32,000 nt of DNA from Desulfocapsa sulfexigens DSM 10523 (GTDB lineage Bacteria > Desulfobacterota > Desulfobulbia > Desulfobulbales > Desulfocapsaceae): positions 3,360,001-3,392,000 of the forward strand of contig NC_020304.1 in assembly GCF_000341395.1 (NCBI RefSeq). The letters are read 5' to 3'. The notes beneath the pieces were generated by a model. It made no database searches, was not told the DNA's origin, and saw only the letters and a list, made by a program, of their open reading frames with translations. Shown in pieces: positions 1 through 18,405 of this stretch. Made by a program: the position numbers and the translations under genes. How positions within the stretch are numbered: position 1 is the stretch's first letter; the number at the start of each line of letters is the position of its first letter.

Positions 1-1125
1 GAAATAGATGCAGTTGGTGGTAGCCGTGCTGGAGGAAGCACGGCCAGTGGCCAGGACGAAAGAAGCCAGACCTTGAATGCACTCCTGGTCGAAATGGATG
101 GATTTTCGTCTACTGACACCATTATAGTGCTTGCAGCAACCAATAGACCAGATATCCTGGATCCAGCCCTGAGACGTCCAGGTCGTTTTGACAGACAGGT
201 CAACATCCTGCCACCTGACATCAAGGGCAGAAAACGAATCCTTAAGGTTCACAGTGCCAAAGTTGCTCTTGCCCCTGAAATCAACCTCGACAAAATTGCT
301 CATATGGTTCCCGGTTTTACTGGTGCAGAGCTGGCAAATCTTGTCAACGAAGCGGCCCTGATGGCTGCAAGAGAGCAAAAGAAAGTTGTTAGCCATCAAC
401 ATTTTGAGCAGGCCAGAGATCGCATACTTATGGGGGTTGAACGAAAGGGGAGAATAATGTCCGACGCTGATCGAGAGATTCTTGCCTACCATGAGGCAGG
501 TCACGCAATTGTTGCCAAAACCCTACCCGACGCTGACCCAATCCACAAAATAACCATCATCCCTCGTGGCCAGGCACTTGGCCAGACGCAGCAATTATCC
601 ATTAACGATAGAAGCAGTTATAACTTCAACTACCTGCGCAGTAGAATTGTTATTTTGATGGGTGGCAGAGCAGCAGAAGAGATTGCATTTGGACAACGTA
701 CTACAGGCGCCCAGGGGGACATTGTTCAAGCCACTGAAATTGCGACCAACATGATCTGCAAGTGGGGAATGAGCGATGTAATAGGTCCGCAGGCCATGGT
801 AATAGATAACGCAGGATTCCTTGGAGGCTCATCGCACCGTGTTGAAATGAGTGACAGGACATCGGAAGCAATTGACAAGGAGATAAAAAATCTCCTGGCG
901 TCCTGCCACGATGAAGCAGTAGTAATCATCAAAGAACAATACTACCTTCTCAAACAGCTTGCAGCCATACTCCTTGAGGTTGAAACCCTGGATGATGAGG
1001 AGTTCAACATCATCATGTCCTGTCAATTTAAGGAAAAAATTGCTGCAGGAATAAAAGAAACTCACGAGTGTGAAACCTGCCCTGCAGCTGACAGATGTAT
1101 TCATTCAAAGCTGAAGAAGGACTAG
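1..1125 (+). CDS. ftsH: ATP-dependent zinc metalloprotease FtsH, paralog 1 (5' end outside the window)
   Basis: Frame 1 is open from nt 1 (EIDAVGGSRAGG...[13 protein letters not shown]). It carries the AAA+ second region of homology ATNRPDILDPALRRPGRFDR, the zinc-protease motif HEAGHA, and IPRGQALG. It is collinear with, and roughly 55-60% identical by eye to, the complete FtsH at 12216-14039. The ORF-track start at 73 is an internal TTG. It ends in a Cys/His tail, HECETCPAADRCIH. Confidence 0.93.
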   Translation, partial: EIDAVGGSRAGGSTASGQDERSQTLNALLVEMDGFSSTDTIIVLAATNRPDILDPALRRPGRFDRQVNILPPDIKGRKRILKVHSAKVALAPEINLDKIAHMVPGFTGAELANLVNEAALMAAREQKKVVSHQHFEQARDRILMGVERKGRIMSDADREILAYHEAGHAIVAKTLPDADPIHKITIIPRGQALGQTQQLSINDRSSYNFNYLRSRIVILMGGRAAEEIAFGQRTTGAQGDIVQATEIATNMICKWGMSDVIGPQAMVIDNAGFLGGSSHRVEMSDRTSEAIDKEIKNLLASCHDEAVVIIKEQYYLLKQLAAILLEVETLDDEEFNIIMSCQFKEKIAAGIKETHECETCPAADRCIHSKLKKD

Positions 1126-1135
1126 GATAAAGAAA

Positions 1136-2041: not shown

Positions 2042-2397
2042 AACTCATTCTGTGCATATGATCAATGTTGGGCAAAACTTAACCTAACATATACTCTTTC
2101 CGATATTCATATAGCTTTAATATAACAAATTTTTTAAATATCTTCTTGCAAGTTTACATGATTTTTTTCAGTATTTTAGAAACAAATTAAGTTCACTGGC
2201 CATACTAATTTTCACTTGACACTACGCTATTATGGCAGTATGCATTGCCTCCAACAATCTCAAACACTACTAAGTAGTAGCATACCATGTGGTATTACTG
2301 GTAACGATTCCCAGTTATTATGCTATTTAGTAATGTAATTAAACGTTTTATTACCTCCTTCATTTCACGCTGACCCATATCTACCGGAGCACAAAAA

Positions 2398-3342: not shown

Positions 3343-3453
3343 TGGTCATTAGCTGAATCTGATCAGCGGCTGATCTACTGCCAATTCATTACAATTTTTA
3401 TCATTATTTACAGTTATACAAAATTATAGTTTTACAAATTAAGAGGAGAGAAA

Positions 3454-4761
3454 ATGACTGGAAGGATGGTTAATATTTCAAAAAGATGGGGATTTCATGG
3501 CGTCGAAGCCTTGAAAAATGCAAGTCCCCTGTACAAATTAACAATGGGAATGTTTGCACTTCTTGCTCTTGCCGGTGTGTCTGTAGGTCTCCATGGCATG
3601 ATCACCGGATATCACCATGTATACGGTGTAACAAGAGAAATTTCCTGGGGAGTACTTATATCAGCATATATCTTCTGTGTTGTTACCTCAACCGGACTCT
3701 GTATTGTCTCATCCATTGGTCATGTTTTCGGCGGTGAAGCTTTTATGCCCATTGCTAAGCGTGCCGTATTTATGTCAATTGTTTTTATGTTTGGTGGCTT
3801 TTGTATCATATTCTTTGATATAGAAAACCCCTTTCGCATGGCAATCTGGAACGTCATTTCACCGAATTTTGTTTCAAATATGTGGTGGATGGGAACACTC
3901 TACGGAATGTATCTCGTGTTCATGATTGTTGAATATTATTTTCTTCTCGAGCAAAACCATTCCTTATCCCGCCTCATGGGATTCTTTGGACTTGTTGTTG
4001 GTATTGCAGCTCATAGTAACCTGGGCGCAGTTTTTGGAATGCTTCATGGACGCCCATTCTGGTATGGCCCCTATCTTCCAATTTACTTCATCTTCTCCGC
4101 CGCCATGTCAGGTGGTTGCGCCATTCTCTTCTTCACTACACTTGGCTGGAAAATTAACCCTGAAATCATGAACCAGCGAATGGAACGAGCCATAAAAGCC
4201 ATTACGCAGGTCACAATCTTTCTTATTTCTGTAATTATTTTCTTTACCATCTGGAAAATCATTACCGGGATGGTTTCTGAAGGAAAGCATCTTGTTATAA
4301 TGTCTTTCTTGACTGGAGATTATGCCATTAATTTCTGGGTTTTTGAAATTTTCCTTGGAATGGTTCTTCCCCTCTATCTTCTTATCCGTTCACGAGGAAA
4401 CAATTTCAATCTCATTATGTGGGCCACCGGCCTTATGATGATCGGTATTTTCTTCATGCGTTATGACATTGTCATTCCAGGTCAAATGGAATCAGTATAC
4501 CACTCATTGGGTGTTGAAGAAGCCAAAAACATGCTCACCTACACCCCTTCATTCCATGAAATAATGGCCTCGCTCTTTGGTATTGGATTCATTGGCCTTG
4601 CCTATTTCGCCGGTGAAAAGATGCTCAATGGACACCAGCTTGAAAAGCATGAAATCGTCCCTGAGGGAGGCTATATCTGTCCAGGTTGTGGAGCTATCCA
4701 CTTTATGGAAGAAGGTGAAAGCGAAGAAGATGCAATGAAGCGTCACCATAGAATCTGGTAA
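3454..4761 (+). CDS. NrfD/PsrC-family polytopic membrane (quinone-interacting) subunit with a C-terminal CPGC/His-rich extension
   Basis: Strong RBS AAGAGGAG. The 435-aa protein is very hydrophobic with about 10 predicted TM helices and NrfD-like N-terminal helices. It sits between a cytochrome gene and a Tat-FeS gene, as in NrfBCD/Psr-type modules. The family call comes from composition and context, not from a search. Confidence 0.8.
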   Translation: MTGRMVNISKRWGFHGVEALKNASPLYKLTMGMFALLALAGVSVGLHGMITGYHHVYGVTREISWGVLISAYIFCVVTSTGLCIVSSIGHVFGGEAFMPIAKRAVFMSIVFMFGGFCIIFFDIENPFRMAIWNVISPNFVSNMWWMGTLYGMYLVFMIVEYYFLLEQNHSLSRLMGFFGLVVGIAAHSNLGAVFGMLHGRPFWYGPYLPIYFIFSAAMSGGCAILFFTTLGWKINPEIMNQRMERAIKAITQVTIFLISVIIFFTIWKIITGMVSEGKHLVIMSFLTGDYAINFWVFEIFLGMVLPLYLLIRSRGNNFNLIMWATGLMMIGIFFMRYDIVIPGQMESVYHSLGVEEAKNMLTYTPSFHEIMASLFGIGFIGLAYFAGEKMLNGHQLEKHEIVPEGGYICPGCGAIHFMEEGESEEDAMKRHHRIW

Positions 4762-4780
4762 GAAAACGATAGGAAATTTT

Positions 4781-4806
4781 CTTTCTGCAACACACAATGC
4801 AGAAAG
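4781..4806 (+). other. Intercistronic stem-loop (9-bp perfect stem, 8-nt loop, no U-tract)
   Basis: ctttctgca (4781-4789) pairs with tgcagaaag (4798-4806), with loop acacacaa. It lies between the NrfD-like and FeS genes. Confidence 0.5.
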
Positions 4807-4856
4807 AGAAATACCTGCCACCCTACTGAATGAATATTTGAAAGGATAGTTATCCC

Positions 4857-5681
4857 ATGAAATTTCCTAAAATAAATTTTGATAATATGAAGAACGAGGG
4901 AACCTCATCAGTCACCCCTCAAGAAAGACGAAAGTTTTTAAAACTCGGCCTTGCAGTCGCTGGTGTCTACGCAGGAGGAAAGATACTTTCCTTAACCTCC
5001 ATCGTTGGAACTGCGCATGCATCAGGTGGCAGCAGCATTGTAAAAAAATACCCATACAATCCACACTACAGTATGGTTATCCGTCAGTCTCTCTGTATTG
5101 ACTGTGAGAAATGCGTTGAATCATGCAACAAAACCAACCATGTCCCTGAATATGGTTATAGAACTCGTATCCTGACAAAGAAATATTCAGGAACTCTTGA
5201 CAAACAGGTTGAGTTTATTCCTGTACTTTGCAATCATTGTAACGATGCCCCCTGTGTAAGAGCATGCCCAACACGGGCAACCTTCAAGGATCCTATAACT
5301 GGTATTGTACGCATGGAGAGTAAAAAATGTATAGGCTGTAAAACCTGCATACTTGCATGCCCCTATGATGCCCGTTATTTCAGTGCTGAAAGACGCGCTG
5401 TAGACAAATGTGACTTCTGCTGGGAAGAAAGACTCTCAAAGGGCGAGACACAGACCGGTTGTTCATCTGCCTGCCCCACTGGAGCCAGAACCTTCGGCAA
5501 CCTTACCGATCCCGAAAATATTGTATACAAACTGGTTCATCAGCTGGAAGAACAGGTATGGGTTCTCCGTCCTGCCGATGATACTAAACCAAATATTTTC
5601 TATATGAAGGGTAATATGCGCTCGGTTGACAATATTCTCAATGGTCAGAAATTCAAATACTTCGATCCTGACAAAGTGTAA
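4857..5681 (+). CDS. Tat-exported 4x[4Fe-4S] ferredoxin-type subunit (NrfC/PsrB-like)
   Basis: Twin-arginine signal ERRKFLKLGLAVAG. Four Cys clusters are present: CIDCEKCVESC, CNHCNDAPCVRACP, CIGCKTCILACP, CDFC...CSSACP. There is no C-terminal TM helix. Confidence 0.9.
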   Translation: MKFPKINFDNMKNEGTSSVTPQERRKFLKLGLAVAGVYAGGKILSLTSIVGTAHASGGSSIVKKYPYNPHYSMVIRQSLCIDCEKCVESCNKTNHVPEYGYRTRILTKKYSGTLDKQVEFIPVLCNHCNDAPCVRACPTRATFKDPITGIVRMESKKCIGCKTCILACPYDARYFSAERRAVDKCDFCWEERLSKGETQTGCSSACPTGARTFGNLTDPENIVYKLVHQLEEQVWVLRPADDTKPNIFYMKGNMRSVDNILNGQKFKYFDPDKV

Positions 5682-5974: not shown

Positions 5975-7978
5975 ATGAACCCTTTTCGAAGAAATGAGAT
6001 CCTTCTCGCGATAAATGAACTTGCTGCCTCCGAAGCCGTAGAAGCTACCGGGGCCGACAAGTTGCTGAGGAAGTGTTGTGAAATTATCATGCAAAATCAT
6101 GAATATTGCCTTATATGGGCTGGAATTCGTGATGAAGATGGCGCTGCGATAACCCCTCTGGCAGCACTTACTTCTGCCAACATTCCCGATAGAGACTGTA
6201 TGTATCTCGTTGAGCAGGTTATCACCGACATGAGTTCAAGCAACCCTGCTGCCGAAGCACTCGTGTCTGGAACTAAAGTCATAATTCAGGATGTTCGTTC
6301 AACCAAACACTACAATTCCCTTCGCGAAATCTCTTTGAAAACCGGTTTCAGATCATGTTCTTCCTGGCCTCTTCTCTATATGGGGAGAGAATTTGGTATT
6401 ATTAACATTCACTCCGAAAAGGTTGATTGTTTTACTGATGAGGAAATTTCGTTTTTACAGGCGGTCGTCTCTGATATCGCCCTGGCTCTTTATACTCAGG
6501 ATATGACCAGGCGGATTCAAATAGAACGGGATTTCAACAGAGAAATGGTAGATACAATGCAAGCGCTTCTTATCTCTATTTCTCCCTGCGGAAAAATTTT
6601 ATCCTTTAACCAGAAGGCAGAAGAGGTGACTGGATACACTGAAGAAGAGGTCATTGACCGCTACTGGGTTGATGTCTTGATGGCTGAAGAAAATCGTAAG
6701 GCAGACCAACAACTTCTCACCCATGTACTGAAAGGTGAGACAGAACAGATGAATTTCGAATCATGCCTGCTTACGAAAGACTGTCAAAAGCGGTTTATCA
6801 ACTGGCACGCCTCTTTTCGACAGAATCTCGAAAAAGGAAAACTTGGGCTTGTCCTGTTTGGAATCGACATTACTGGGCAACTCCAAGTTGACCATGATCT
6901 TAAGCAGGCAATTTCACAATGGGAAAATATTTTTTCCGCAATTCAGGATCCAGCCCTCATTGTCTCAAAAGACTCCGTTATTCTTGATGCCAATCTGGCA
7001 ACATTCACAGCTGCACGGAAAACGCGCCCGGATGTCATTGGTCATAAAATATGCGACATTCTCCACCTCGGTCGCTCAACAAATGCACCCTGCCCTCTGG
7101 AACAGTTTATTGCAAAAGGTAAAAGCAGGATTATTGAAACTGAACTAAGAGGACTCCACGGTAACTATCTTCTTACCATCAGTCCTTTAAATATGAATGA
7201 CGGTGAAGAGGAAGCAGCCCTTCTTGTTGCCAGAGATTTAACAGAGGAAGAACTGATGAAGGCAGAAGCCATGCGCGCAGCTCAACTCGCCTCAGTGGGT
7301 GAGCTTGCAGCAGGTGTTGCCCATGAAATCAATAATCCCATAAATGGAATTATCAATTATGCCCAAATCATCCTCGACGACCCCGATGATCCAGACAATA
7401 GAGATCTGCTGGTACGAATAAAAAAAGAAGGAAAACGTATAGCATCGATAGTTTCGAATCTTCTCGATTTCTCAAGACGTGGTGAGGAATCGCCAGAAGA
7501 AGTTGCTATCCAAAGCATACTCAACAAGAGCCTGGAGCTTGTCAGTCACCGCTTTAACAACGATATGATACTTCTGGACATGCAACTCCCTGAAAACCTC
7601 CCTCTGGTTTACTGTAATTCTCAACAGATTCAACAGGTTTTCCTCAACATTCTCTCAAATGCCCGCTATGCCCTGAACGAAAAATTTCCAGGGCCAGATC
7701 CCAACAAGATCCTGACTGTTCGTGGTGAGACGATAATGCATGCAAAGGCCACTTATGTTCGTATTACCATAACAGATAACGGTTCTGGAATTGAACAGGA
7801 TTTAATCGATCGGGTTTTTGATCCATTTTACTCGAGTAAACCCAAAGGTGAAGGTACCGGTCTTGGCCTCTCCATCAGTCATGGACTCATTCAGGACAAC
7901 AAAGGATACCTCAGAATAGCCAGTGAACTCGGATCTTCAACATCCCTACTTGTTGATTTACCTATTTCTTCAAACTAA
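5975..7978 (+). CDS. Soluble GAF-PAS-PAS sensor histidine kinase (canonical catalytic core)
   Basis: No TM segments. The N-terminal ~170 aa are GAF-like and are followed by two PAS-like regions. H-box AHEINNPINGIINYAQ (His450, nt 7322-7324), N-box NILSNARYAL, G1 DNGSGI, F-box FDPFYS, G2 GEGTGLGLSIS. Confidence 0.9.
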   Translation: MNPFRRNEILLAINELAASEAVEATGADKLLRKCCEIIMQNHEYCLIWAGIRDEDGAAITPLAALTSANIPDRDCMYLVEQVITDMSSSNPAAEALVSGTKVIIQDVRSTKHYNSLREISLKTGFRSCSSWPLLYMGREFGIINIHSEKVDCFTDEEISFLQAVVSDIALALYTQDMTRRIQIERDFNREMVDTMQALLISISPCGKILSFNQKAEEVTGYTEEEVIDRYWVDVLMAEENRKADQQLLTHVLKGETEQMNFESCLLTKDCQKRFINWHASFRQNLEKGKLGLVLFGIDITGQLQVDHDLKQAISQWENIFSAIQDPALIVSKDSVILDANLATFTAARKTRPDVIGHKICDILHLGRSTNAPCPLEQFIAKGKSRIIETELRGLHGNYLLTISPLNMNDGEEEAALLVARDLTEEELMKAEAMRAAQLASVGELAAGVAHEINNPINGIINYAQIILDDPDDPDNRDLLVRIKKEGKRIASIVSNLLDFSRRGEESPEEVAIQSILNKSLELVSHRFNNDMILLDMQLPENLPLVYCNSQQIQQVFLNILSNARYALNEKFPGPDPNKILTVRGETIMHAKATYVRITITDNGSGIEQDLIDRVFDPFYSSKPKGEGTGLGLSISHGLIQDNKGYLRIASELGSSTSLLVDLPISSN

Positions 7979-7988
7979 GGAGTACCTG

Positions 7989-9110
7989 ATGAACAAAAAC
8001 TACCGAATTCCACTCCTGCTCTCAATTATGTTCTTATCGGTTGCCACTGTTTTGTATTTTTTTGATTTACGGATTTCTAACAGCTGCTCGACTGTTAACT
8101 ACATCCCTTACAATATCTGGTCCTTAGTTATTCTTTTTTTCCTATACGTCATTACAATTTTTCTTTTTTGGCGTGAATCAAAGATATTTAAAAGGAAAGA
8201 GGTAACCCTTCAGAAGAATCTAAAAATGGCTACTGACTCTTTAAATGATGTTCAGTCATCCTTGGATGATGCTGTCGAGAAAAAAACATTTGAAATGTCG
8301 GTCATCAATGGATCGCTTAACCGGGAAATTGCCGAACGAATTCAAGCAGAAGCCGAAGGCCTTAAACTGCGAAAACGACTCCACACTATTCTCGACTCTG
8401 CAGGAGATGGCATCTTTGGGATAGATCTCGAAGGAAAAGTAACTTTTGTTAACCTTAAAGCCACGGAATTACTCGGTTGGACAAGGGAAGAACTAATAGG
8501 CACATCACACCACGACCTGGTCCATCACACCCGCAGCAATGGCCAGGATTTTCCTGTTGAAGAGTGTCCAATTTATATGGCCTACAAGGATGGACAGATG
8601 CACTTTGAAAAGAACGACGTTTTCTGGAAAAAGTCGGGTGACAACTTTATGGTCGAATACACCTCAACACCACTTCTCGATAACGGTCAGATATCAGGTG
8701 CTGTTGTGGTTTTCAAAGACATATCAAGAACGAAGAGACTCGAACGGCAACTTGATTTGATCGTTAACTCCGCAGGAGAAGGAATTTTTGGACTCGACAC
8801 TAATGGCAATGTAACCTTCATGAACAAGGCAGCATCCATTATGCTCGGGTGGGAGATGAAGGAATTGATCGGTAAATCACATCATCAACTGGTCCACCAC
8901 AGCCATGCGGACGGAACAAAATACCAGGAGTCCGATTGTCCTATTTTCATGGCCTGTAAGGATGGACAGGTACATTTCAAATCAGACGATCTTTTCTGGA
9001 CAAAAGACGGAAGCAGCTTTCCGGTAGAGTATACTTCCACCCCTATCATTGAGGGTAAAACACTTACTGGCGCAGTAGTTGTATTCAGAGATTTAACAAC
9101 CTTTGCATGA
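7989..9110 (+). CDS. Membrane-anchored tandem-PAS protein with no output domain
   Basis: AAGGAG (7977-7982) lies 6 nt before ATG 7989, so the ORF-track start at 7923 would overlap the kinase gene and is rejected. There are two TM helices, a coiled-coil linker, then two ~50% identical PAS repeats (SAGDGIFGIDLEG...VVVFKDIS and SAGEGIFGLDTNG...VVVFRDLT). Each repeat carries SHHxLVHH-x3-(N/D)G-x7-CPI. The protein ends 6 residues after the second PAS. Confidence 0.88.
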   Translation: MNKNYRIPLLLSIMFLSVATVLYFFDLRISNSCSTVNYIPYNIWSLVILFFLYVITIFLFWRESKIFKRKEVTLQKNLKMATDSLNDVQSSLDDAVEKKTFEMSVINGSLNREIAERIQAEAEGLKLRKRLHTILDSAGDGIFGIDLEGKVTFVNLKATELLGWTREELIGTSHHDLVHHTRSNGQDFPVEECPIYMAYKDGQMHFEKNDVFWKKSGDNFMVEYTSTPLLDNGQISGAVVVFKDISRTKRLERQLDLIVNSAGEGIFGLDTNGNVTFMNKAASIMLGWEMKELIGKSHHQLVHHSHADGTKYQESDCPIFMACKDGQVHFKSDDLFWTKDGSSFPVEYTSTPIIEGKTLTGAVVVFRDLTTFA

Positions 9111-9161: not shown

Positions 9162-10979
9162 ATGGAAAATAATCCTGCAGTTGAAATACCGATCCTTGTC
9201 GTAGATGACGAAGAATCTCTGCGCCACACCTTTAAGATTTTTCTAAAACGTGAAGGCTATGGCCCAATTATACTCGCATCTAATTTCGAGGAAGCCGTAG
9301 GAGAACTGACAACCCGATCTTTTGATCTGGTAATCAGTGATATCGTCCTTGGCGGAAATTCAGGCATTGACCTTCTAAAACGAATAAGAGAACTGAATAT
9401 CACCTGCCCTGTCATAATGGTAACAGGATATCCACATGTCGATACTGCTTCAGAAGCTTTACGTTTTGGTGCCTTTGACTATATCCAGAAACCGGTAGAG
9501 AAAGATCAACTACTAAAGACGTCGCGGCTGGCCTTACAGCAATATAAACTTCAGCACGAGAAACAGAAAGCCGAAGAAGAAAAAGATCACTATCGAGCCT
9601 ACCTTGACACATTACTTAGAAGCGTTTCAGACAGTATCATCACAATAGACCAGGATCTGAACATTATTAAAATGAATCAGGCTGCTCGGTCTTTCTTCAG
9701 CCCCCTGAACCCCGCAATAAATGAGGGAGGCAATCTCTCAGTTGCGTGTGCTGATAAAAACAGCTGCTTCTTTAAAGAGGATGCTGAAAAAGTCCTGCGA
9801 TCAGGCATTGAAATCAAGGAGCACCGAATCGAATTCACAACTGAAACGATGGATCGAAAGGTTATAAGCATATGCATATCCCCTCTTGAAGATGGTCGTG
9901 GTAGCTTTCATGGCGTTGTCATCGTTATTCGTGATATGACATGTTTAATAGAGTCGGCAAGTTCCAAATTGCGTAGTTCCTTTCATCGAATGATCGGGGC
10001 AAGCCCGGCCATGCAGACTGTCTACACGATGATAGAAAATGTTGGGAAAGTTGATTCAGCAGTACTTATTACCGGAGAAAGTGGAACCGGAAAAGAACTT
10101 GCAACAGAAGCTCTGCACCTTGAAAGTCATCGTAAAAACAGACCACTCGTCAAGGTTGACTGTACGGCTATTCCCGAAAATCTCCTCGAAAGTGAACTTT
10201 TTGGTCATAAAAAAGGCTCGTTTACTGGCGCAGATCAGGATCGAATGGGAAGAATCCTTCAAGCCGATGGTGGCACACTCTTTCTCGACGAAATAGGTGA
10301 CATTCCTCCTATGATGCAACTGCGCCTCTTGCGATTCCTCCAGGAAAAAACCTTTTATCCAGTTGGTCGCGACACTTCCATTCAGGTGGATGTGAGAATT
10401 ATAGCCGCCACTAATGTAAATTTGCGGGAGAAGGTCCAACAGGGGAAATTTAGAGAGGATCTCTATTTTCGATTGAGAGTTATTGATATCATTCTGCCAC
10501 CTCTTCGAGAACGTGCCGGTGATATTCCGCTACTGGCAAATAATTTCATCCAACACTATTCCCGGAAAATGGGGAAGCCGGTATCTGGTATTTCAGATCA
10601 GGCTATGACATTGCTGACAAACTACACATGGCCTGGAAATATCAGAGAACTGGAACATGTTATTGAACGATCATGCGTGCTCTGCAATGGCTCGACGATT
10701 GCGAGTGAACAGCTTCCCATTGAAATTCAGAATCAAACAACTTTTCAGGACACTACAACCAGTTCACCACTACGACAGGGTGGCGAACTGCAGCATTCTG
10801 AAAAACCATTGTTTTCAGATCCTTTCCAGGGCAACAGTCCAGAAAGTAGAATCATTGCAGCACTGAAAAAAAGTGGTGGCAATAAGGCAAAAGCAGCCAG
10901 ACTGCTGTCCATTGATCGTTCAACCCTTTATCGAAAATTACGAGAAATGAAGATTGACCTTAGCACCTTCGACCTCTAA
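9162..10979 (+). CDS. Sigma-54-dependent response regulator (REC-PAS-AAA+-Fis HTH enhancer-binding protein)
   Basis: AGGAG RBS. REC domain with VVDDEES, phospho-Asp in LVISDIVL, and IQKP. A PAS-like middle region follows. Walker A GESGTGKE, sigma-54 contact loop GSFTGA (a variant of GAFTGA), Walker B LFLDEIG, C-terminal HTH RSTLYRKLRE. Confidence 0.93.
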   Translation: MENNPAVEIPILVVDDEESLRHTFKIFLKREGYGPIILASNFEEAVGELTTRSFDLVISDIVLGGNSGIDLLKRIRELNITCPVIMVTGYPHVDTASEALRFGAFDYIQKPVEKDQLLKTSRLALQQYKLQHEKQKAEEEKDHYRAYLDTLLRSVSDSIITIDQDLNIIKMNQAARSFFSPLNPAINEGGNLSVACADKNSCFFKEDAEKVLRSGIEIKEHRIEFTTETMDRKVISICISPLEDGRGSFHGVVIVIRDMTCLIESASSKLRSSFHRMIGASPAMQTVYTMIENVGKVDSAVLITGESGTGKELATEALHLESHRKNRPLVKVDCTAIPENLLESELFGHKKGSFTGADQDRMGRILQADGGTLFLDEIGDIPPMMQLRLLRFLQEKTFYPVGRDTSIQVDVRIIAATNVNLREKVQQGKFREDLYFRLRVIDIILPPLRERAGDIPLLANNFIQHYSRKMGKPVSGISDQAMTLLTNYTWPGNIRELEHVIERSCVLCNGSTIASEQLPIEIQNQTTFQDTTTSSPLRQGGELQHSEKPLFSDPFQGNSPESRIIAALKKSGGNKAKAARLLSIDRSTLYRKLREMKIDLSTFDL

Positions 10980-10993
10980 CCCCCACTGCCACT

Positions 10994-11023
10994 GCTACAC
11001 TTCTGTGGAATCAGAAGTGTAGC
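10994..11023. promoter_or_regulatory. Perfect 12-bp inverted repeat (two head-to-head copies of the 16-mer motif core); candidate enhancer (UAS)
   Basis: gctacacttctg (10994-11005), tggaat, cagaagtgtagc (11012-11023). No U-tract follows, so it is a poor intrinsic terminator. It lies about 225-250 bp upstream of the -24 element of P2. Confidence 0.5.
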
Positions 11024-11027
11024 ACAT

Positions 11028-11043
11028 GCCACACTTATGTGGT
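11028..11043 (+). promoter_or_regulatory. 16-mer palindromic motif copy (GCCACACTTATGTGGT)
   Basis: It matches copy A at 5858-5873 at 14/16. It starts 5 nt after the 10994-11023 palindrome. Confidence 0.5.
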
Positions 11044-11191
11044 GCGACCTTTCCTCAGCCACCACCCCTACCTAGACGCACTCAACATCCTGTATTTATA
11101 TGTTTTTCTCACCCACGGTGCGCATAAGAATTCATTTAATTGATATTATTCTTAAATAGAATCGAAGCAAACACATTCTAAACAAACCTAA

Positions 11192-11244: not shown

Positions 11245-11260
11245 TGGCACCGTATGTGCA
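11245..11260 (+). promoter_or_regulatory. Sigma-54 (-24/-12) promoter, P2
   Basis: The sequence is TGGCACcgtatgTGCA. GG at 11246-11247 and GC at 11258-11259 are separated by exactly 10 nt. It lies about 47 nt upstream of ATG 11307. Confidence 0.7.
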
Positions 11261-11306
11261 ATAACTCAAGCTAAAGTGGATAAGTCAGCTCTTTCAAGGA
11301 GAACTC

Positions 11307-12212
11307 ATGCAGGCCATACATTTTCACATAGAAAGCTTTCCCAAGACTCTTGATGAGTTCAAGAGGCTTTTTAATAATGAAGAGAAAAGTCTGCGTTTTC
11401 TCTTTTCAAAAAGATGGCCTAACGGTTTCGAGTGCCCTTACTGCAACTGGCTTGATGACAACCTTATACCAACCAAGACTAGAACATGCGGTCATTGTGG
11501 TCACCCAACCTCAATTACCACCAACACAATCATGCATGGAACCAAAAAGCCACTTTCACAATGGCTTATCTCCATATACTGGCTCACATCGACAGCAGGC
11601 GGAAACAGTGCTAAAGATTTGCAGCGTCTGCTGAAACTTTCAAGCTACCAGACTGCATGGACATGGCTGCAAAAGCTGCGCATGGCCATGGCCATCGCAG
11701 ACAAAAAACGGTGTAGCAAAACAGTAGAGATTTCTTCCGATACCATTTCCCTAGGTGGCGAAGCCCACAATAAACCTCTTATTCTGGCCGCTGCTGAGAT
11801 AGTCCTTCCTGCCGGAATTACAGGGAGAATAAAAATGGCAACAATTAGCTCTTTTAACTCGGAAACCGTCAACTCCTTTCTTGAGCAACATGTTGCGCCT
11901 GGTGCCTCTCTTATCACACCAGAAGATACGCAATACAAACTCATTACTGGCAACAATTTCGTGACAATTACAGACCCTGCAATTTACCGAACTAAACAAA
12001 TAATCAAAAGTTTTGAGATCTGGATCAATAAGATTCACCGAGGTGGAGTTGCAGCAAAACACCTGCAACTTTATCTCGACGAGTTTTGTTTTCGACGCAA
12101 TGCTGAAATGCTGCCGGACAGAGAAGCAATATTTAACCTTCTTCTTTCAGGCGTAATCAGTAAAAAATCGCTCTCCTACAAAAGCATCATTTCGCAATCC
12201 ACAACGGAGTAG
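11307..12212 (+). CDS. IS1595-family transposase-like protein (N-terminal Zn-ribbon plus ISXO2-like domain), with no detectable IS ends
   Basis: AAGGAG RBS. Zn-ribbon RWPNGFECPYCNW...CGHCGH. VEISSDTISLGG resembles the first-Asp block vEvDEtyiGG, and the C-terminal KHLQLYLDEFCFRRN is the family signature. By eye, the second catalytic Asp position is Pro (LITPEDTQY), and the region before the Glu block is short. The stop lies 3 nt before the ftsH ATG. Confidence 0.7.
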   Translation: MQAIHFHIESFPKTLDEFKRLFNNEEKSLRFLFSKRWPNGFECPYCNWLDDNLIPTKTRTCGHCGHPTSITTNTIMHGTKKPLSQWLISIYWLTSTAGGNSAKDLQRLLKLSSYQTAWTWLQKLRMAMAIADKKRCSKTVEISSDTISLGGEAHNKPLILAAAEIVLPAGITGRIKMATISSFNSETVNSFLEQHVAPGASLITPEDTQYKLITGNNFVTITDPAIYRTKQIIKSFEIWINKIHRGGVAAKHLQLYLDEFCFRRNAEMLPDREAIFNLLLSGVISKKSLSYKSIISQSTTE

Positions 12213-12215
12213 AAT

Positions 12216-14039
12216 ATGTCTCAAATCCAGACAGGATTATTGGTCCTTCTTCTTACTTTCCTTGGTGTTGTTGGATACAACGTCTATCTTCACGAAACTA
12301 CTCCCAATGATATTTCGTACACCGAGTTCGTAGAACTGCTTGAAGACGGTAAAATAAAAGATATACACCTCAAGGGTGGTGTCGTTACTGGTACAGACCT
12401 GACCCTCCATGAGTTCAGCTCTTTTATTGTTGACCTCCCTTCCATTCTCCCCCTAATTGAACGTCAGGGAGTAACAATCACAGCAGAAAAGGATAGTGAG
12501 ACTCTCAGCGGCTTTATGCAATCAATGGTTCCAGTCTTTCTTATTCTTGGCGGTTATCTTATTTTTTCAAGAATGCAGAAAGGTGATAAAGGTGGATTCG
12601 GAAAAAACAAAAGCCGCTCTTTTCACCCTAAAAAGAATACAGGAGTCACTTTTGACGACGTAGCTGGTATCAGTGAAGCCAGAACTGAGCTCGTTGAGAT
12701 TGTAGACTCATTAAAAAATCCTGAAAAATTCTCAAGGCTTGGCGGATATGTGCCAAAGGGAGTTCTCCTCCAGGGCCCTCCAGGAACCGGAAAAACTCTC
12801 CTTGCCAAGGCAATAGCCGGGGAAGCCTTAGTCCCCTTTTATTCCATTGGCGGATCCGATTTTGTTGAAATGTTTGTTGGTGTTGGGGCGTCACGGGTTC
12901 GGGAGCTTTTTACCGAAGCCAAAAAGAATTCACCATGCATCATATTTATAGATGAAATTGATGCCATAGGCGGAAAACGAAGTGGCGGAAATGCTACCGG
13001 ATCAAACGACGAACGTGAACAGACATTGAATGCGCTGCTGGTCGAGATGGATGGATTCGATTCTAACGAAACCGTTATCATCATTGGGGCAACAAACCGT
13101 CCTGACATGCTTGATCCTGCACTTTTAAGGCCCGGACGTTTTGATCGCCAGGTAACTATATCATTGCCGGATGTAAAGGGACGCCGCAACATTCTTGAGG
13201 TCTATGCAAAAAAAATAGTTATGTCTCCCAGTGTCAATCTGTCAGAGATTGCGCGATCAATCCCAGGGTTCAGTGGTGCTGAAATTGCCAACCTCGTCAA
13301 TGAGGCTGCTCTAACTGCAGCCCGTTACAACAAAAAGGCTGTTGAAACATCAGATTTTGATGAGGCAAAAGACAAGATAAGTCTCGGTCTCGAACGTAAA
13401 AATGTTGTCATCAATGAAAAAGACCGCAGGGTCACAGCATATCATGAAGCTGGCCATGCGATTACAGCAAAACTTTTGCCCGACACCGATCCCGTACACA
13501 AGATATCCATTATTCCTCGTGGGCAAGCCCTTGGCCTTACCCAGCAATTGCCTCTTGCTGATAAACACACCTACTCTCGTGACTATCTCCTTAACAGAAT
13601 CAAAATACTCATGGGTGGCAGAATAGCAGAGGAAATAATTTTTGATCATCAAACTACAGGTGCCAGCAATGATCTCGTTGGAGCAACTGAGATTGCCAGT
13701 CGTTTTGTCTGTGAATTCGGCATGAGTTCAACTATTGGCCCAATCGCCTACATGCAGGAACAGGGTGGTTTTCTAGGCGGAACAAGCACGATGAAACCCT
13801 ACAGCGAAAAAACTGCAGAACGCATCGATAATGAAATCAAAAGGGTTATTGAACAATGCTATGTGGAAACAACAGAACTTCTGACTCAGAACAGTAAATT
13901 TCTCCACAAACTCGCTGAGGCCCTTCTTGTCAACGAAACCGTGGATGGTGAAGAATTCGATATCGTCCATAACTGTTATATAAACGAAAAAAATATTGAA
14001 AAAAATTTAAAGAATAAACGCAAGGAGGAACGGCTTTAA
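12216..14039 (+). CDS. ftsH: ATP-dependent zinc metalloprotease FtsH, paralog 2 (complete)
   Basis: 607 aa with two N-terminal TM helices flanking a ~75-aa loop. Walker A GPPGTGKT, Walker [38 protein letters not shown]. The RBS ACGGAG lies inside the preceding ORF. Confidence 0.95.
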
Positions 14040-14098: not shown

Positions 14099-14635
14099 AT
14101 GCGAACACGAAAGAAAATCATGAGGACAGCGTTAGCGCTTACCGTTGGTTCCTTTATGATAACACCCATCACAGCGTGGTCAATGGAGGCGTCCGATGCT
14201 CCAGAAACTGTCACCATCGACAGTATGAGTAAGTTGTACGGGCCGGTGGAATTTGATCATAGTATGCACGTTGGATACGCCAGTTGTCAGGAATGCCATC
14301 ATCACACAACCGGTGAAGTTGTAGCTGACCCGAACTGTGCCCGCTGTCACAACAGCGCAGATGAAAATGATGTTGTCAGCTGCAGTGAGTGTCATGAAGC
14401 TAACAGGTTTAACGAAAAATATCTTAAAACCCTTGAAGACCCAAAGCTTTACCACATTGACAAGCCTGGTCTGAAAGGTGCGTACCACCTCAATTGTGTT
14501 GGGTGCCATACCATCACATCTGGACCAACTGGATGTGTAGATTGTCATGCCATGACAGAGGATGGAGAGAAGATGTTTAATACGGGAGCTTTTGCCCCTG
14601 CTAAAGGAACATCATCCTCTGGTCAGAAACATTGA
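14099..14635 (+). CDS. Periplasmic cytochrome c3-family multiheme cytochrome (five CxxCH motifs)
   Basis: AAGGAGG RBS and a signal peptide. VEFDHSMHVGYASCQECHHH is a typical c3 heme-1 block. Motifs: CQECH, CARCH, CSECH, CVGCH, CVDCH. Confidence 0.9.
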   Translation: MRTRKKIMRTALALTVGSFMITPITAWSMEASDAPETVTIDSMSKLYGPVEFDHSMHVGYASCQECHHHTTGEVVADPNCARCHNSADENDVVSCSECHEANRFNEKYLKTLEDPKLYHIDKPGLKGAYHLNCVGCHTITSGPTGCVDCHAMTEDGEKMFNTGAFAPAKGTSSSGQKH

Positions 14636-14674
14636 TCAGAACATCCAGTGACCAGTTTTATGAGAGGAAAAAAA

Positions 14675-15640
14675 ATGAAAAAACTATTTAGCCGTAGAAA
14701 TTTTCTAAAAGGCGGGCTTGCAACGACAGCAGCCGCCGCGGTACTTAAAAATAAAGAAACCAAGGCATCGGGTGACTTCGAAGGATATCCCGATGGCATG
14801 GGTGTACTCGTAGACCTGACCCGTTGTGTTGGCTGCCGATCATGTGAAGCCGCATGTAACAAGGAACAGGAACTTCCAGAACCAGCAAAACCATTCACCG
14901 ATTTTTCAATCTTCGACGAAATGCATCATGGTCAGAAAAGACGCACGGACGAAACAGCTTACACCGTAGTCAATCGGTACGATGTACCAGAACTCGACCA
15001 TCCACTATTCAGGAAATTTCAATGTAATCATTGCCAGGAACCAGCATGCCTCACCTCCTGCTTTGTTAATGCTTATACAAAAACACCTGAAGGTGCTGTT
15101 ATCTATAACTCTAAGGTCTGTGTTGGCTGCAGAACCTGTATGATAGCCTGCCCCTTCTACGTACCAACCTTTAAATATTCCAGTGCATTCAGTCCTAAAA
15201 TCATGAAGTGTGTATTCTGTTACGATACCCGCCTTAAAGAAGGAAAAGCCCCTGCATGTGTTGAGGCATGCCCACAGGAAGCATTGACCTTTGGCAAGCG
15301 TGTTGACTGTATCGATATGGGTCGCCAGCGTATTCGTGAAACTCCTGGGAAATATGTTGATCATATTTATGGCGAGCATGAGGTTGGAGGTACTGCCTGG
15401 ATGTATCTTTCCAGTGTACCTTTTGATAAAGTTGGTTTTGATACCCACGTCCCAAAAGAACCTATCATTAATTCAGTTAAAGACTTCCTTGCCATGGTAC
15501 CAATGGTACTCACCATCTGGCCTGGACTCTTTGTAGGATTCCACTTACTGGCTACACGGAAAGAGAAAATGATGGAAATGGAAAAAGAAAAAGAACTTGC
15601 CAAACAAAAAGCAACCGATGAGAAGGAGGAGCAGGTATGA
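14675..15640 (+). CDS. Tat-exported 4Fe-4S subunit with a C-terminal membrane anchor (HybA/HmcB/DsrO-like)
   Basis: The preferred start is ATG 14675, 6 nt after GAGAGGA, giving MKKLFSRRNFLKGG, a classic Tat signal. The ORF-track GTG at 14648 is less likely. Cys clusters: CVGCRSCEAAC, CNHCQEPACLTSC, CVGCRTCMIACP, CVFC...CVEACP. It has a C-terminal TM helix (FLAMVPMVLTIWPGLFVGFHLLA) and a K/E-rich tail. Confidence 0.9.
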   Translation: MKKLFSRRNFLKGGLATTAAAAVLKNKETKASGDFEGYPDGMGVLVDLTRCVGCRSCEAACNKEQELPEPAKPFTDFSIFDEMHHGQKRRTDETAYTVVNRYDVPELDHPLFRKFQCNHCQEPACLTSCFVNAYTKTPEGAVIYNSKVCVGCRTCMIACPFYVPTFKYSSAFSPKIMKCVFCYDTRLKEGKAPACVEACPQEALTFGKRVDCIDMGRQRIRETPGKYVDHIYGEHEVGGTAWMYLSSVPFDKVGFDTHVPKEPIINSVKDFLAMVPMVLTIWPGLFVGFHLLATRKEKMMEMEKEKELAKQKATDEKEEQV

Positions 15641-16890
15641 AACTCTTTTCAAAAGAACGACCTGATATTCCAATCGTCAACCATCTCAAAGCAGATGGTA
15701 CAGAGTGGACAGTTAAAGAAAAACTCTGGTTAGGCCTGTCAGTATCAGAGTACAAAAAACAGTTTTTCAGAAATCCTGTAAACTGGCTGATGATAGCAAT
15801 TTTTGCTGTTGGTGTTCCACTTATTGTTGGACGTTATATCTTTGGTCTTGGCTGGGTAACCCATGCCTCCAATGACTATCCCTGGGGTCTTTTTCTTGGA
15901 TTCGGACTTTTTGGAATGGTCCCACTTTCAGCATCAGGATTTATGCTTGGAACAACAGTAGAGCTTTTTGGCAGAAAAGATTTTCATGCCATTGAACGCT
16001 TAGCCCTGCTCAACGGTCTTCTCGGTTACTTCTTTGCTGTACTGTTCCTTGAGGTTGACCTTGGCATGCCATGGCGTCTTCCTTACCCTATGTTCGTGTC
16101 TCTAGGACCTGCTGCCGTACTTTTTCTTGTTGCATGGCATGTTGCCACCTATCTTTCTGTTCAAATAGCAGAAGTACTCCCTGCCTTTTTTGAGTGGATT
16201 GGCTGGCTCAAAGGAAAACGTATAATCAGGAAGTATGTTCTTGGACTCACAGTAGCAGGAATTATCCTTTCTACACTCCATCAGGGAGCTCTGGGTGCAT
16301 TATTCACCTATGCACCTGCAAAAGTCCATCCATTATGGCTGTCGGTGAATTTCCAATGGATACATTTTTTCTGCTCATCTATTTTTGCAGGATTATCCAT
16401 GGTCATAATTGCATCAACACTAATTAAAAACTTCATGGGATGGCGCTGTGATGATGAATTCAAAGACAATCTTGACTACATCACCATAGGACTGGCAAAA
16501 GGTGCTTCATATGCCATGATAACATACCTGATCATCAAAATAGTTGCGGTTGCTCATGACCAGGAATGGTCATATCTTCTCACCGGATGGGGCAGTTACT
16601 ACATGTTGGAACTTGGCGTTGCAGTGGTACTTCCAATGTTTATGTTTGCCATTGGTATCAGGAATAAATGGGTAACACTCATTAGATTCGGTGCCTTTAT
16701 TGCTGCATTTGGTATCATCTGGAATCGTCTGAACACTGCTCTTATTTGTTACAACTGGCAGATGTATCAGGAAATTCCTCACTGGAAGGAAGTGTGGATA
16801 ACGATTACAATTTACTCACTCTATTTCCTGACCTACCGCTTTATCGTCTATCGCCTTCCCATCGTATATGGATGGAAGGGTGAAAAATAA
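15637..16890 (+). CDS. NrfD/HybB/DsrP-family polytopic membrane subunit
   Basis: ATGA overlap with the FeS gene stop. 417 aa with about 10 TM helices. The N-terminal block YPWGLFLGFGLFGMVPLSASGF is typical of this family. Confidence 0.85.
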   Translation: MKLFSKERPDIPIVNHLKADGTEWTVKEKLWLGLSVSEYKKQFFRNPVNWLMIAIFAVGVPLIVGRYIFGLGWVTHASNDYPWGLFLGFGLFGMVPLSASGFMLGTTVELFGRKDFHAIERLALLNGLLGYFFAVLFLEVDLGMPWRLPYPMFVSLGPAAVLFLVAWHVATYLSVQIAEVLPAFFEWIGWLKGKRIIRKYVLGLTVAGIILSTLHQGALGALFTYAPAKVHPLWLSVNFQWIHFFCSSIFAGLSMVIIASTLIKNFMGWRCDDEFKDNLDYITIGLAKGASYAMITYLIIKIVAVAHDQEWSYLLTGWGSYYMLELGVAVVLPMFMFAIGIRNKWVTLIRFGAFIAAFGIIWNRLNTALICYNWQMYQEIPHWKEVWITITIYSLYFLTYRFIVYRLPIVYGWKGEK

Positions 16891-16980: not shown

Positions 16981-18405
16981 ATGAGAAACTTTCTTTCAAA
17001 ACTATCCTTGAAACGTATATTCTCTCTTTTTACTGTCACAACCATAGTCCTGCTTTTCATTGTGATCTTCTTTGCAGGAAAACAGTATTTTCTCTTTCGA
17101 CATTGCGAAAAACTTGTTGACTCAAGCCAGCATCTCCTCTTTCAATTTACCGGAATAAAAGAACACATAAACGAAACCCTGCTCAGTAACGGCACACTGA
17201 ACACTCCTGAAATAAACAAGGAAATCCAAAGCCTCGACTCACAGTTACAACATATACTGGAAGACATTCTCATTCCCGAGGAATTCAAACTTAACTTTAT
17301 CAGTCAGCTCGATCTTGTAAATATCACAGTGGCATTGAGGAATTTGCAAAACAGCACTCCTCCGATCAATAACGAGCAGTTGGCGACACTTTCTGCCCAA
17401 CTCCGTAGTGTCAATTCAAAACTCACCGGTTTTCATGAATTGATAAGCAGATACACCCAGACGCAGCTCCTGGGACTTCATAAAGCACTTGTTGGACTCC
17501 TTTCAATCGTAATTGCTTTGGTGAGCATCATGCTTCTCACCATAAATCGATATATAACCTCCCCCATCCTTCATTATTGCCGGACACGTTCTCCGAGTGA
17601 AACAGAGCCAGTAACTCTCTTTTCCCTACATAAAACAATCGAAACATTGGCAGACAATCCTGTTGCAGGATCGGTAACTAGCCCAGATGACAGTCTTGAG
17701 TTGACACGTCTCTACAGATACAGCTCAATAGGACACTTGCTTGGAGGGCTCAGTCATGAACTGACAAATATTTCGAATGGTATTCTTAATTACACCCAGG
17801 CAATTATTGACCTGAGTAATGATTCTAATTTAGATGCGGACTCTCGACAGCTACTGCACAAACTTTTTGTTGAAGAAAAAAAGATGTCTCAGCTTCTGAG
17901 CAATATGATTGCTTTTACAAGTGGTAGTGCCCAGGGACAGGCAAAAGTACTTTCTGTTGAAGAACTTTTTGAAAACATTAGGACACTCGTTCACGGAACC
18001 TTTAAAAGTGAACAAATAAACCTCAATATTAAACTCAGCAATCCGGCATTTATGCTGAAAAACCATGTAAGTGATTTACAACTTGTCATCCTTTCTGCCA
18101 TACAAAATAGCCGAACGGCCCTCAATTATCGTTATGTGGGGGTTGTCCCCGAGTCAGAAAAGAAAACAATACAGCTCTCCTTCGACGAACCTCTCCAGAA
18201 TAGCAACAGCATATGTGTCGAGATTCTTGATAACGGTGCCAGTCATTCTAAAACGGCAGATGGGAGTAAAACGACCAGGCCATGGCACAATATGAATGTC
18301 TGCAAAAGTTTTCTTCAGACCTTTGGCGGAACCCTTGAGCTCACCAGAACGAGTGACAAAACCAATCGTTGCCTTATCTGTCTTCCTTTATCAAAAGATA
18401 ATTAA
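16981..18405 (+). CDS. Two-TM sensor histidine-kinase-like protein with an intact H-box but degenerate ATP-binding boxes (sensor paralog B)
   Basis: It has the same TM / 130-aa loop / TM layout as the 1136 protein, and the loop is homologous. H-box LSHELTNISNGILNYTQ, N-box ILSAIQNSRTAL. G1 is DNGASH instead of DNGxGI. No F-box or GxGLGL G2 is present (RPWHNMNVCKSF in that position). Confidence 0.85.
   Translation: MRNFLSKLSLKRIFSLFTVTTIVLLFIVIFFAGKQYFLFRHCEKLVDSSQHLLFQFTGIKEHINETLLSNGTLNTPEINKEIQSLDSQLQHILEDILIPEEFKLNFISQLDLVNITVALRNLQNSTPPINNEQLATLSAQLRSVNSKLTGFHELISRYTQTQLLGLHKALVGLLSIVIALVSIMLLTINRYITSPILHYCRTRSPSETEPVTLFSLHKTIETLADNPVAGSVTSPDDSLELTRLYRYSSIGHLLGGLSHELTNISNGILNYTQAIIDLSNDSNLDADSRQLLHKLFVEEKKMSQLLSNMIAFTSGSAQGQAKVLSVEELFENIRTLVHGTFKSEQINLNIKLSNPAFMLKNHVSDLQLVILSAIQNSRTALNYRYVGVVPESEKKTIQLSFDEPLQNSNSICVEILDNGASHSKTADGSKTTRPWHNMNVCKSFLQTFGGTLELTRTSDKTNRCLICLPLSKDN

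Follow-up and report, generated by a model that had tools for sequence, protein, structure and literature searches.

What is a transposase-like gene doing at the head of a bacterial protease operon: is it a mobile element, or has it become a host gene, and if so, with what role? The question is raised by a locus in Desulfocapsa sulfexigens DSM 10523 (contig NC_020304.1, positions 3,360,001-3,392,000 of the forward strand). We analyzed this whole stretch of 32,000 nt, which we call the window and whose coordinates are used throughout. Within it, an open reading frame (ORF) resembling transposases of the IS1595 family of insertion sequences (IS) lies between a predicted sigma-54 promoter and an ftsH gene. 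Sequence comparisons strongly support the view that this ORF is a domesticated, immobile IS1595 transposase, vertically inherited across the Desulfobulbales. As to its role, we lean slightly towards the explanation that fits best, namely that the non-transposing protein, encoded by the first gene of a sigma-54 operon, is kept as a sequence-specific DNA binder. An earlier inspection of the bare letters (the sequence-only reading) had already suggested a domesticated, non-mobile protein, and catalytic loss, fixed position, selection and the lack of terminal repeats now support that part of it.

Identity, active site and inheritance of the ORF

Both domains expected of an IS1595 transposase occur in the ORF. 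The Zn_ribbon_IS1595 domain (PF12760) matches residues 24-66 (E=1.1e-7, 32.1 bits), and DDE_Tnp_IS1595 (PF12762) matches residues 152-265 (E=1.4e-12, 48.3 bits), the latter match being confined to profile positions 33-153 of 153. With the NCBIfam model transpos_IS1595 (NF033547) the score is 95 bits, above the cutoff of 75. The hallmarks named in the sequence-only reading, a CPYC...CGHC Zn-ribbon and a YLDEFCFRRN signature, are both present (C43-C46 with C61-C64, and residues 256-265), and Pfam and NCBIfam agree with the assignment. The motif LITPEDTQY lies at residues 202-210.

Conservation is strongest towards the N-terminus. An alignment of 93 family sequences has 36 invariant residues, and 28 of them fall within residues 40-132, the region of the Zn-ribbon and the helix-turn-helix (HTH), and the HTH sequence of the family is SAKDLQRLLxLSSYQTAWTWLQKLR. 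An AlphaFold 2 model of the product (predicted local distance difference test score, pLDDT, 87.8) contains predicted helices at 102-109 and 114-131 in the HTH region, and the best fold matches of this model in the PDB are DDE transposases and retroviral integrases (ISCth4, IstA, Sleeping Beauty). A sequence search against solved structures returned chance Zn-ribbon matches only; no IS1595 structure exists.

We mapped the catalytic residues by alignment to annotated active IS1595 members (ISRama1, ISCsp2 and others), and this mapping agrees with the published IS1016/IS1595 signature DESYFG ... YTD ... ECEFRFN (PMC12561309). The ORF lacks the intact D-D-E(N/H) triad (DE..YFG / TD / ExxFRxN), the first and second catalytic Asp (D1 and D2) being replaced and the Glu retained (Table 1). 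Among 121 close homologs, D1 is Asp in one, D2 is Asp in three and Pro in 103, and Glu259 is Glu in all 121. The profile hidden Markov models (HMMs) that the sequence-only reading proposed for scoring the triad give true matches to a family in which two of the three catalytic residues are gone. The same reading had noticed by eye a Pro at the second catalytic Asp and a shorter segment ahead of the Glu block. Alignment to bona fide IS1595 transposases bears out both observations, with a D2-to-E segment shorter than in active IS1595, and adds the Ser at D1 and an 11-residue deletion past the first catalytic strand, by which a beta-hairpin is lost. In this IS1595-like ORF, the fold is kept and the chemistry is lost.

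Two cysteines set the domesticated family apart from active IS1595 relatives. Cys136 (11712-11714) and Cys261 (12087-12089) are invariant or nearly so in the family, whereas the active relatives have Leu and Val/Thr at these positions. The former lies just N-terminal to the former first catalytic strand, the latter two residues past Glu259, and together they may constitute a gained metal or redox site.

A protein search returned about 1,600 homologs whose identity slides smoothly from 99% to 44%, nearly all of them about 301 aa long. Each homolog cluster occurs on few contigs, lengths stay at about 291-313 aa in more than 100 clusters, and the reading frames are intact. Gene neighbourhoods at 80, 70, 64, 53 and 46% identity match that of the window, and in each the gap to or overlap with ftsH is a few bases. 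A separate group (P0132-P0135, about 36% identity) encodes proteins of 457-616 aa whose IS1595-like part is C-terminal, behind an extension of 140-300 aa. These extensions could be fusions, gene-calling artefacts or another co-option.

We then surveyed loci by scanning one genome per species and applying tblastn with the window proteins, which gave 80 loci. In 61 of these, ftsH is directly downstream, and the orthologs range from 84% to 31% identity. The junction with ftsH mostly measures -8 to +6 nt, with others up to +40 nt. Contig permitting, the gene order is that of the window: genes for a histidine kinase, a PAS protein and a sigma-54 regulator, the transposase-like gene, ftsH, and genes for Hmc-like cytochrome, Fe-S and membrane proteins. 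These 61 syntenic loci come from Desulfocapsa, other Desulfocapsaceae, Desulfobulbus (including D. rhabdoformis DSM 8777 and D. elongatus DSM 2908), Desulforhopalus and one metagenome-assembled genome (MAG) labelled "Desulfobacterales". The remaining 19 loci lack ftsH and belong to Planctomycetota, Bacillota, Bryobacterales, Alphaproteobacteria and other groups.

The active site follows the same division. In each of the 61 ftsH-linked loci one or more catalytic residues are missing, and the replacements differ between lineages, whereas all 19 non-linked relatives retain VEVDET / TDGW / YLDEF. The most divergent syntenic members (31-37% identity; L075, L078, L079/L084/L087 and L071) decay in different ways, which points to a stepwise loss of the active site, particular to each lineage, following one old domestication. 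Two of these members, L075 (478-1311) and L078 (4001-4885), keep Asp at D1 and have lost the Glu (QIAQFSF). A third, L071 (3983-4987), keeps the long hairpin and the second Asp in a protein of 334 aa, and its leader is about 215 nt long.

The gene has diverged together with its neighbour. Pairwise distances of the transposase-like protein and of FtsH are strongly correlated (r=0.95, Mantel p=0.001; 55 loci), the former evolving about 1.6 times faster. The ratio of nonsynonymous to synonymous substitution rates (dN/dS; Nei-Gojobori NG86, pairs with dS 0.2-0.8) is 0.10-0.25 for the transposase-like gene. In the same pairs it is 0.05-0.15 for ftsH and 0.06-0.18 for the activator gene.

The features that define a mobile element are missing. 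No assembly among the 61 contains more than one syntenic locus. A search of 72,556 plasmids found no relative above 33% identity, and no similarity to plasmids was found at the DNA level. We detected neither GGG-starting terminal inverted repeats at both ends nor any other inverted repeats flanking the ORF; their absence had been claimed by eye and holds in the repeat comparison. The best flanking pair, 11301-11313 and 12404-12416 (13 nt, 92% complementary), is at chance level, is coding and is unlike IS1595 ends; its first half is at the start of the ORF and its second is inside ftsH. The ORF stop is 3 nt from the ftsH ATG, which leaves no room for a right inverted repeat. By contrast, most non-syntenic relatives have clear terminal inverted repeats of 25-45 bp, in elements of 1.0-1.08 kb, and one MAG, CAVQIG01, carries two real IS1595 copies with identical ends (L082/L089).

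In sum, the orthologs are syntenic and co-diverging, an intact frame is under purifying selection, and the transposition machinery has been lost. Given the synteny, the co-divergence with FtsH, the low dN/dS, the single copy and the absence of close plasmid relatives, we regard the ORF as a vertically inherited host gene and not an insertion sequence. The sequence-only reading had proposed that extra copies, orthologs upstream of ftsH and dN/dS would be informative. As described above, there is at most one syntenic copy per assembly with plasmid relatives at 33% identity or less, the same position is occupied in 61 loci of different Desulfobulbales species, and dN/dS is 0.1-0.25. It had also named two observations that would speak for a mobile element; we found no multicopy elements with inverted repeats, and no case in which relatives lack the gene while the triad is intact.

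The sigma-54 promoter and its conserved 12-mer

The promoter TGGCACCGTATGTGCA differs at one position from TGGCAC-N5-TTGCW, and no other match of this quality in the window stands ahead of a gene that has a sigma-54 activator next to it. The promoter ends 46 nt before the ATG, in accordance with the spacing of about 47 nt noticed in the sequence-only reading, and transcription is predicted to start near 11271. The form TGGCAY-N5-(G/A)TGCA, with -24 GG and -12 GC conserved at canonical spacing, occurs upstream of the gene in every syntenic locus that has enough upstream sequence (about 60 loci). It is absent upstream of the real IS copies, save for one weak match 383 nt upstream in L086. Directly after the stop codon of the AAA+ activator gene, 200-270 nt upstream of the promoter region, there are three palindromes, one of which is a perfect 13-nt inverted repeat (10993-11005/11012-11024) with a 6-nt loop. 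Because no T-run follows them, they are better read as an enhancer than as a terminator. They are presumed to be the upstream activating sequence for the sigma-54 activator, whose binding is predicted.

When the upstream regions of six orthologs are aligned, what is conserved is the three palindromes, the -24 and -12 elements and an invariant 12-mer, AAGTGGATAAGT. In nearly all orthologs the 12-mer lies 13 nt past the TGCA of the -12 element. Since this spacing is fixed whatever the distance to the start codon, which varies from -1 to 218 nt, the 12-mer is tied to the promoter. Its 9-nt core, AAGTGGATA, is found exactly at the promoter site in 40 of the 61 loci. Elsewhere in the 479 kb searched on both strands there are three occurrences, against 3.4 expected by composition, which means that 40 of 43 occurrences are at the promoter site. 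As far as autoregulation is concerned, what we find is a conserved, cognate-like site at the promoter and transcript start that is specific to that position.

Searches for further elements were negative. Elsewhere in the window, the 12-mer and the enhancer palindrome had only chance matches with 2 mismatches, and none of the 61 loci has a second 12-mer site. RNAalifold predicted zero conserved pairs in 22 leaders, and Rfam at a permissive threshold gave only chance matches to eukaryotic microRNAs and small Cajal body-specific RNAs.

Before inspecting the ends of active relatives, we posed the question of their likeness to the 12-mer. The terminal-repeat consensus of these relatives is gGGGTATCCACTT.aCtCAaGT..ccCC. 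Reverse-complemented, its best conserved block, TATCCACTT, is identical to the 12-mer core. By a conservative test, a 9-mer shared by chance between a random 12-mer and at least one of the 26 real ends, read in both orientations, has a probability of 0.008; against the consensus alone it is about 7e-4.

The recognition helix points in the same direction. In the domesticated protein it reads SYQTAWTWLQKLR, which is nearly identical to SYQTAWTWLHKLR in active relatives with TATCCACTT ends, and across the domesticated proteins SSYQTAWTWLQKLR is almost the same as GSYQTAWTWLHKLR in relatives that carry the TATCCACTT core. Two real IS elements have both an altered helix and an altered core: RYETAWTMLHKLR with TATCCGGTT in L014, and SYHTAWEWLHKLR with TATGCAGTT in L015. 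Among active relatives, the helix/core pairs are SYQTAWTW-TATCCACTT, RYETAWTM-TATCCGGTT and SYHTAWEW-TATGCAGTT, with two helix positions co-varying with the 9-nt core. This co-variation, seen in very few examples, may represent a simple recognition code of the family. Terminal repeats were located at 552-582/1532-1562 in L014 and 555-606/1491-1542 in L015, as well as in L077, L082 and others.

The reverse complement of the 12-mer, ACTTATCCACTT, also contains TTATCCACT, which matches 8 of 9 positions (TTATCCACt) of the DnaA box consensus TTATCCACA. The terminal-repeat core of active relatives (GTATCCACT) is likewise DnaA-box-like.

Possible roles of the protein and its operon

It seems to us evenly balanced whether the transposase-like protein binds the inverted-repeat-like site at the start of its own transcript and thereby feeds back on the operon. 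In such a scheme, the neighbouring two-component sigma-54 activator would switch the operon on. The nuclease-dead transposase would then bind AAGTGGATAAGT at about +4 to +15 of its own sigma-54 promoter, and the bound protein would hinder open-complex formation or promoter escape. The outcome would be feedback on its own operon, probably negative. The sign of the regulation is speculative, and so is a connection with FtsH, for instance a turnover of the transposase-like protein under FtsH control. The proposed feedback could be likened both to the autoregulation of IS transposases, which bind an end overlapping their own promoter, and to the route from transposase to transcription factor in eukaryotes. 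The sequence-only reading had guessed at a Zn-ribbon DNA-binding regulator. To this guess the analysis adds a conserved, inverted-repeat-like site at the promoter, and the binding itself is a prediction from these comparisons.

Several observations weigh against a DNA-binding autoregulator. The likeness between the 12-mer and the terminal repeats stops at 9 nt, and in a right-justified comparison a longer fossil repeat at the promoter is not supported, with identity beyond the core at about chance. The core is inverted with respect to the orientation expected of the gene's own left end; its orientation does match the inner half-site AAGTG(G/A) of palindromic repeats in some relatives, for example L077. 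Each locus has a single 12-mer site, and in the syntenic members that have diverged furthest (L075-L087, 31-34% identity) at most a GGATA(A/G)G remnant is left of it. DNA-binding repressors at sigma-54 promoters are uncommon. Moreover, conservation is also good in the RNase-H-like C-terminal half, Glu259 and HRGG included, and since a pure DNA binder has no obvious need for this half, a further function such as oligomerisation or partner binding is hinted at. Finally, the operator role of the 12-mer is putative, and another protein could bind it, given the DnaA-box match at 8 of 9 positions.

The conserved C-terminal half despite catalytic loss would be accommodated if the protein were, as the sequence-only reading had also suggested, an FtsH partner, that is, an adaptor, modulator or dedicated substrate of a co-translated FtsH paralog, with the fold kept for protein contacts and DNA binding incidental. 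The tight junction is found in 61 of 61 loci (-8 to +40 nt, mostly 3-4 nt or an overlap of 1-8 nt), the ftsH ribosome-binding site lies inside the gene, and the gene never occurs without ftsH in the domesticated clade. The window also encodes the C-terminal 350 aa of a second FtsH (73..1125), 55% identical to the linked FtsH, and given this second copy the linked FtsH is probably a specialised paralog. However, co-transcription is no proof of interaction, conservation is strongest in the Zn-ribbon/HTH DNA-binding region, and the repeat-like 12-mer at the promoter is left unexplained. We consider this explanation unlikely as the main one, and note that it and the autoregulator model are compatible and not mutually exclusive.

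Another explanation is that the 12-mer is not the protein's site at all. It could be a DnaA-box-like or other host-factor site, or a primary-sequence signal in the RNA leader, with the protein acting elsewhere, for example by titrating the ends of incoming IS1595 elements. Inactive or truncated transposases are known to inhibit transposition, as do Tn5 Inh and IS1 InsA. The near match of TTATCCACT to the DnaA box consensus TTATCCACA fits this explanation, as does a match to the repeat core that covers only 9 nt and is inverted. However, with its invariant CTT end the core agrees with the IS repeat (CCACTT) at 9 of 9 positions and departs from the DnaA consensus where the R boxes of E. coli oriC have A, and there is an A/G wobble at a T of the DnaA box. 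Furthermore, the recognition helix is conserved with that of relatives carrying the same core, and the strict operon context across the order favours a function tied to the operon. This explanation appears quite improbable.

An ordinary IS1595 insertion, recent or decaying, would be either a pseudogene or an element that still moves by means of a non-canonical active site. In its favour, the ORF scores above the curated IS1595 HMM cutoffs and its relatives are publicly annotated 'IS1595 family transposase'. This explanation is scarcely credible, however, and is refuted by the same position in 61 species-level genomes with co-divergence, dN/dS far below 1 in frames of about 301 aa that are intact throughout, the missing terminal repeats, the one copy per assembly, and catalytic Asp residues that are replaced differently in different lineages.

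The coordinates of the locus are collected in Table 1. A sigma-54 activator is encoded upstream in nearly all syntenic loci whose contig reaches far enough. At the other side, the stop codon TAG (12210-12212) is followed by the spacer AAT and the ftsH ATG (12216), so that the 3-nt gap and the internal ribosome-binding site described in the sequence-only reading are both there, and ftsH is probably translationally coupled to the transposase-like gene. The same reading had called this gene the first of an ftsH-cytochrome operon, which agrees with the sigma-54 promoter upstream, ftsH 3 nt downstream and the conserved order. The 474-aa protein is usually encoded by the last conserved gene of the cluster, with a counterpart of about 475 aa in most of the orthologous loci examined, of 437-675 aa in others, and usually within about 437-484 aa; it may be a degenerate kinase-like sensor or partner.

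Table 1 Features of the transposase-like gene and its surroundings, in window coordinates
Feature	Position	Strand	Basis or remark
GAF-PAS-HisKA-HATPase sensor kinase, first of the conserved upstream regulatory trio	5975..7978	+	Pfam; same place in orthologous loci
Two-PAS-domain protein, between kinase and regulator	7923..9110	+	Pfam; synteny
Sigma-54 activator response regulator, REC-PAS-AAA+ Sigma54_activat-HTH_8	9162..10979	+	Sigma54_activat E=7.9e-69
Three conserved palindromes, consensus CCACAC-TT-GTGTGG	10990..11044	.	Kept in 6 orthologs, 46-100% protein identity
Predicted sigma-54 (-24/-12) promoter TGGCACCGTATGTGCA	11245..11260	+	TGGCAC-N5-GTGCA; one mismatch from TGGCAC-N5-TTGCW
12-mer AAGTGGATAAGT, proposed operator	11274..11285	+	About +4..+15 of predicted transcript
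Shine-Dalgarno AAGGAG of transposase-like gene	11296..11301	+	Sequence
IS1595-family transposase homolog, domesticated	11307..12212	+	301 aa, ATG start; homology, synteny, selection
Zn-ribbon CxxC-x14-CxxC (C43, C46, C61, C64)	11433..11498	+	Pfam; no variation within family
Helix-turn-helix, residues 99-127 (...SAKDLQRLLKLSSYQTAWTWLQKLRMA)	11601..11687	+	Best conserved stretch of protein
Ser143 at first catalytic Asp (D1); VEISSDT, VEVDETY in active IS	11733..11735	+	Alignment
Pro205 at second catalytic Asp (D2); TPED, TDGW in active IS	11919..11921	+	Alignment
Glu259, third catalytic residue, retained; YLDEFCFRRN, YLDEFxFRxN in active IS	12081..12083	+	Alignment
GGAG ribosome-binding site of ftsH, within final codons of transposase-like gene	12206..12209	+	Sequence
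FtsH paralog, AAA+/M41 membrane protease	12216..14039	+	Pfam; TIGR01241 739.7 bits; full-length
Small multihaem c3-type cytochrome, TmcA/HmcA-like	14099..14635	+	Profile matches
TAT-exported Fe-S protein, HmcB-like	14648..15640	+	NF045715 402 bits, cutoff 420 just missed; Pfam
Integral membrane HmcC-like (NrfD/HybB-type) subunit	15637..16890	+	NF045714 356 bits, below cutoff 550
474-aa protein, weak HisKA-like region	16981..18405	+	Pfam 22.9 bits, below cutoff; no HATPase match

A paralogous cluster occupies positions 73-5681 upstream, so that two clusters of FtsH plus a redox module are adjacent in the window. In addition to the C-terminal part of FtsH and a 301-aa ORF, it encodes a c7-type multihaem cytochrome (2398-3342), an NrfD-type membrane protein (3454-4761) and a DsrO/NrfC-like Fe-S protein (4857-5681). 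The 301-aa ORF (1136-2041), which lies beside FtsH, was considered as a second transposase-like gene and rejected: it has no similarity to the first and no family match.

Comparison with known systems

We regard the domestication as solid and order-wide, and the regulatory mechanism as a specific prediction. Eukaryotes provide well-documented cases in which DDE transposases became regulators, while the accepted prokaryotic cases mostly involve other enzymes (RAYTs, Cas1, TnpB-derived proteins). The locus is an ancient bacterial example with a testable prediction, of one protein, one 12-bp site and one promoter, and culturable strains carry it. It also means that hundreds of Desulfobulbales annotations as "IS1595 family transposase" are not mobile-element genes, which bears on IS censuses and on MAG quality and mobility metrics. 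In addition, it draws attention to an uncharacterised, order-wide operon, with an FtsH paralog and an Hmc-like module, under two-component/sigma-54 control in sulfur-cycling bacteria. In our literature searches, neither a domestication of IS1595 nor an operon of a transposase-like gene, ftsH and Hmc-like genes turned up.

IS1595 is related to the eukaryotic Merlin elements. It is possible, although we put it forward only tentatively, that the protein is the first bacterial DDE (IS1595/Merlin-type) transposase turned transcription factor. A fossil of the terminal repeat would then serve as its operator and FtsH would be co-translated with it, the whole forming a feedback module, possibly a protease-tuned repressor, on an Hmc-like membrane redox complex since the Desulfobulbales ancestor.

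A first comparison is with the IS1595 family itself (ISfinder; ISRama1, ISCsp2, the IS1016 group, ISApl4). The ORF shares with it the Zn-ribbon, the HTH, the RNase-H-like DDE_Tnp_IS1595 domain and YLDEFxFRxN. With active copies it has about 31-35% identity, a nearly identical recognition helix and, beside the gene, a copy of the 9-nt core TATCCACTT. Unlike family members, however, it has no terminal repeats or second end, exists as a single copy in a fixed chromosomal place, and has lost both catalytic Asp residues and the 11-residue hairpin. It also differs in its sigma-54 promoter and its probable coupling to ftsH.

Among eukaryotic proteins, catalytically dead domesticated MuDR/Spm proteins retain the DNA-binding domain and are presented as a one-step route from transposase to regulator (bioRxiv 10.64898/2026.08.24.746577). 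Transposase-derived factors such as FHY3/FAR1, from Mutator-like elements, resemble our case in that catalysis is lost, the DNA-binding domain is kept and the cis-elements are related to transposon ends. Their roles were shown experimentally, whereas our case concerns a bacterial host and an IS1595 source, with a single site at the gene's own sigma-54 promoter and a predicted function.

RAYT/TnpAREP has been described as the first prokaryotic domesticated transposase. Like the ORF, these IS200/IS605-derived tyrosine (HUH) proteins are single-copy, vertically inherited and housekeeping-like in their evolution, which are the criteria of Bertels et al. (PMC5581495), and they act on repeats related to transposon ends. 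They differ in being active HUH enzymes that disperse REP/REPIN sequences, whereas the ORF product is a DDE-type protein whose active site is lost; it has a single cognate-like site, and its gene is part of an operon.

Two further proteins offer a comparison. TldR is a TnpB-derived, nuclease-dead, RNA-guided repressor, and repression by IS1 InsA comes about through its binding to IS ends overlapping the promoter. In both, as in our model, a transposon-encoded protein that targets nucleic acids acts as a transcriptional repressor. However, TldR is guided by RNA and InsA resides within a mobile element, whereas here, if the model is true, a DDE transposase would read a host sigma-54 promoter directly.

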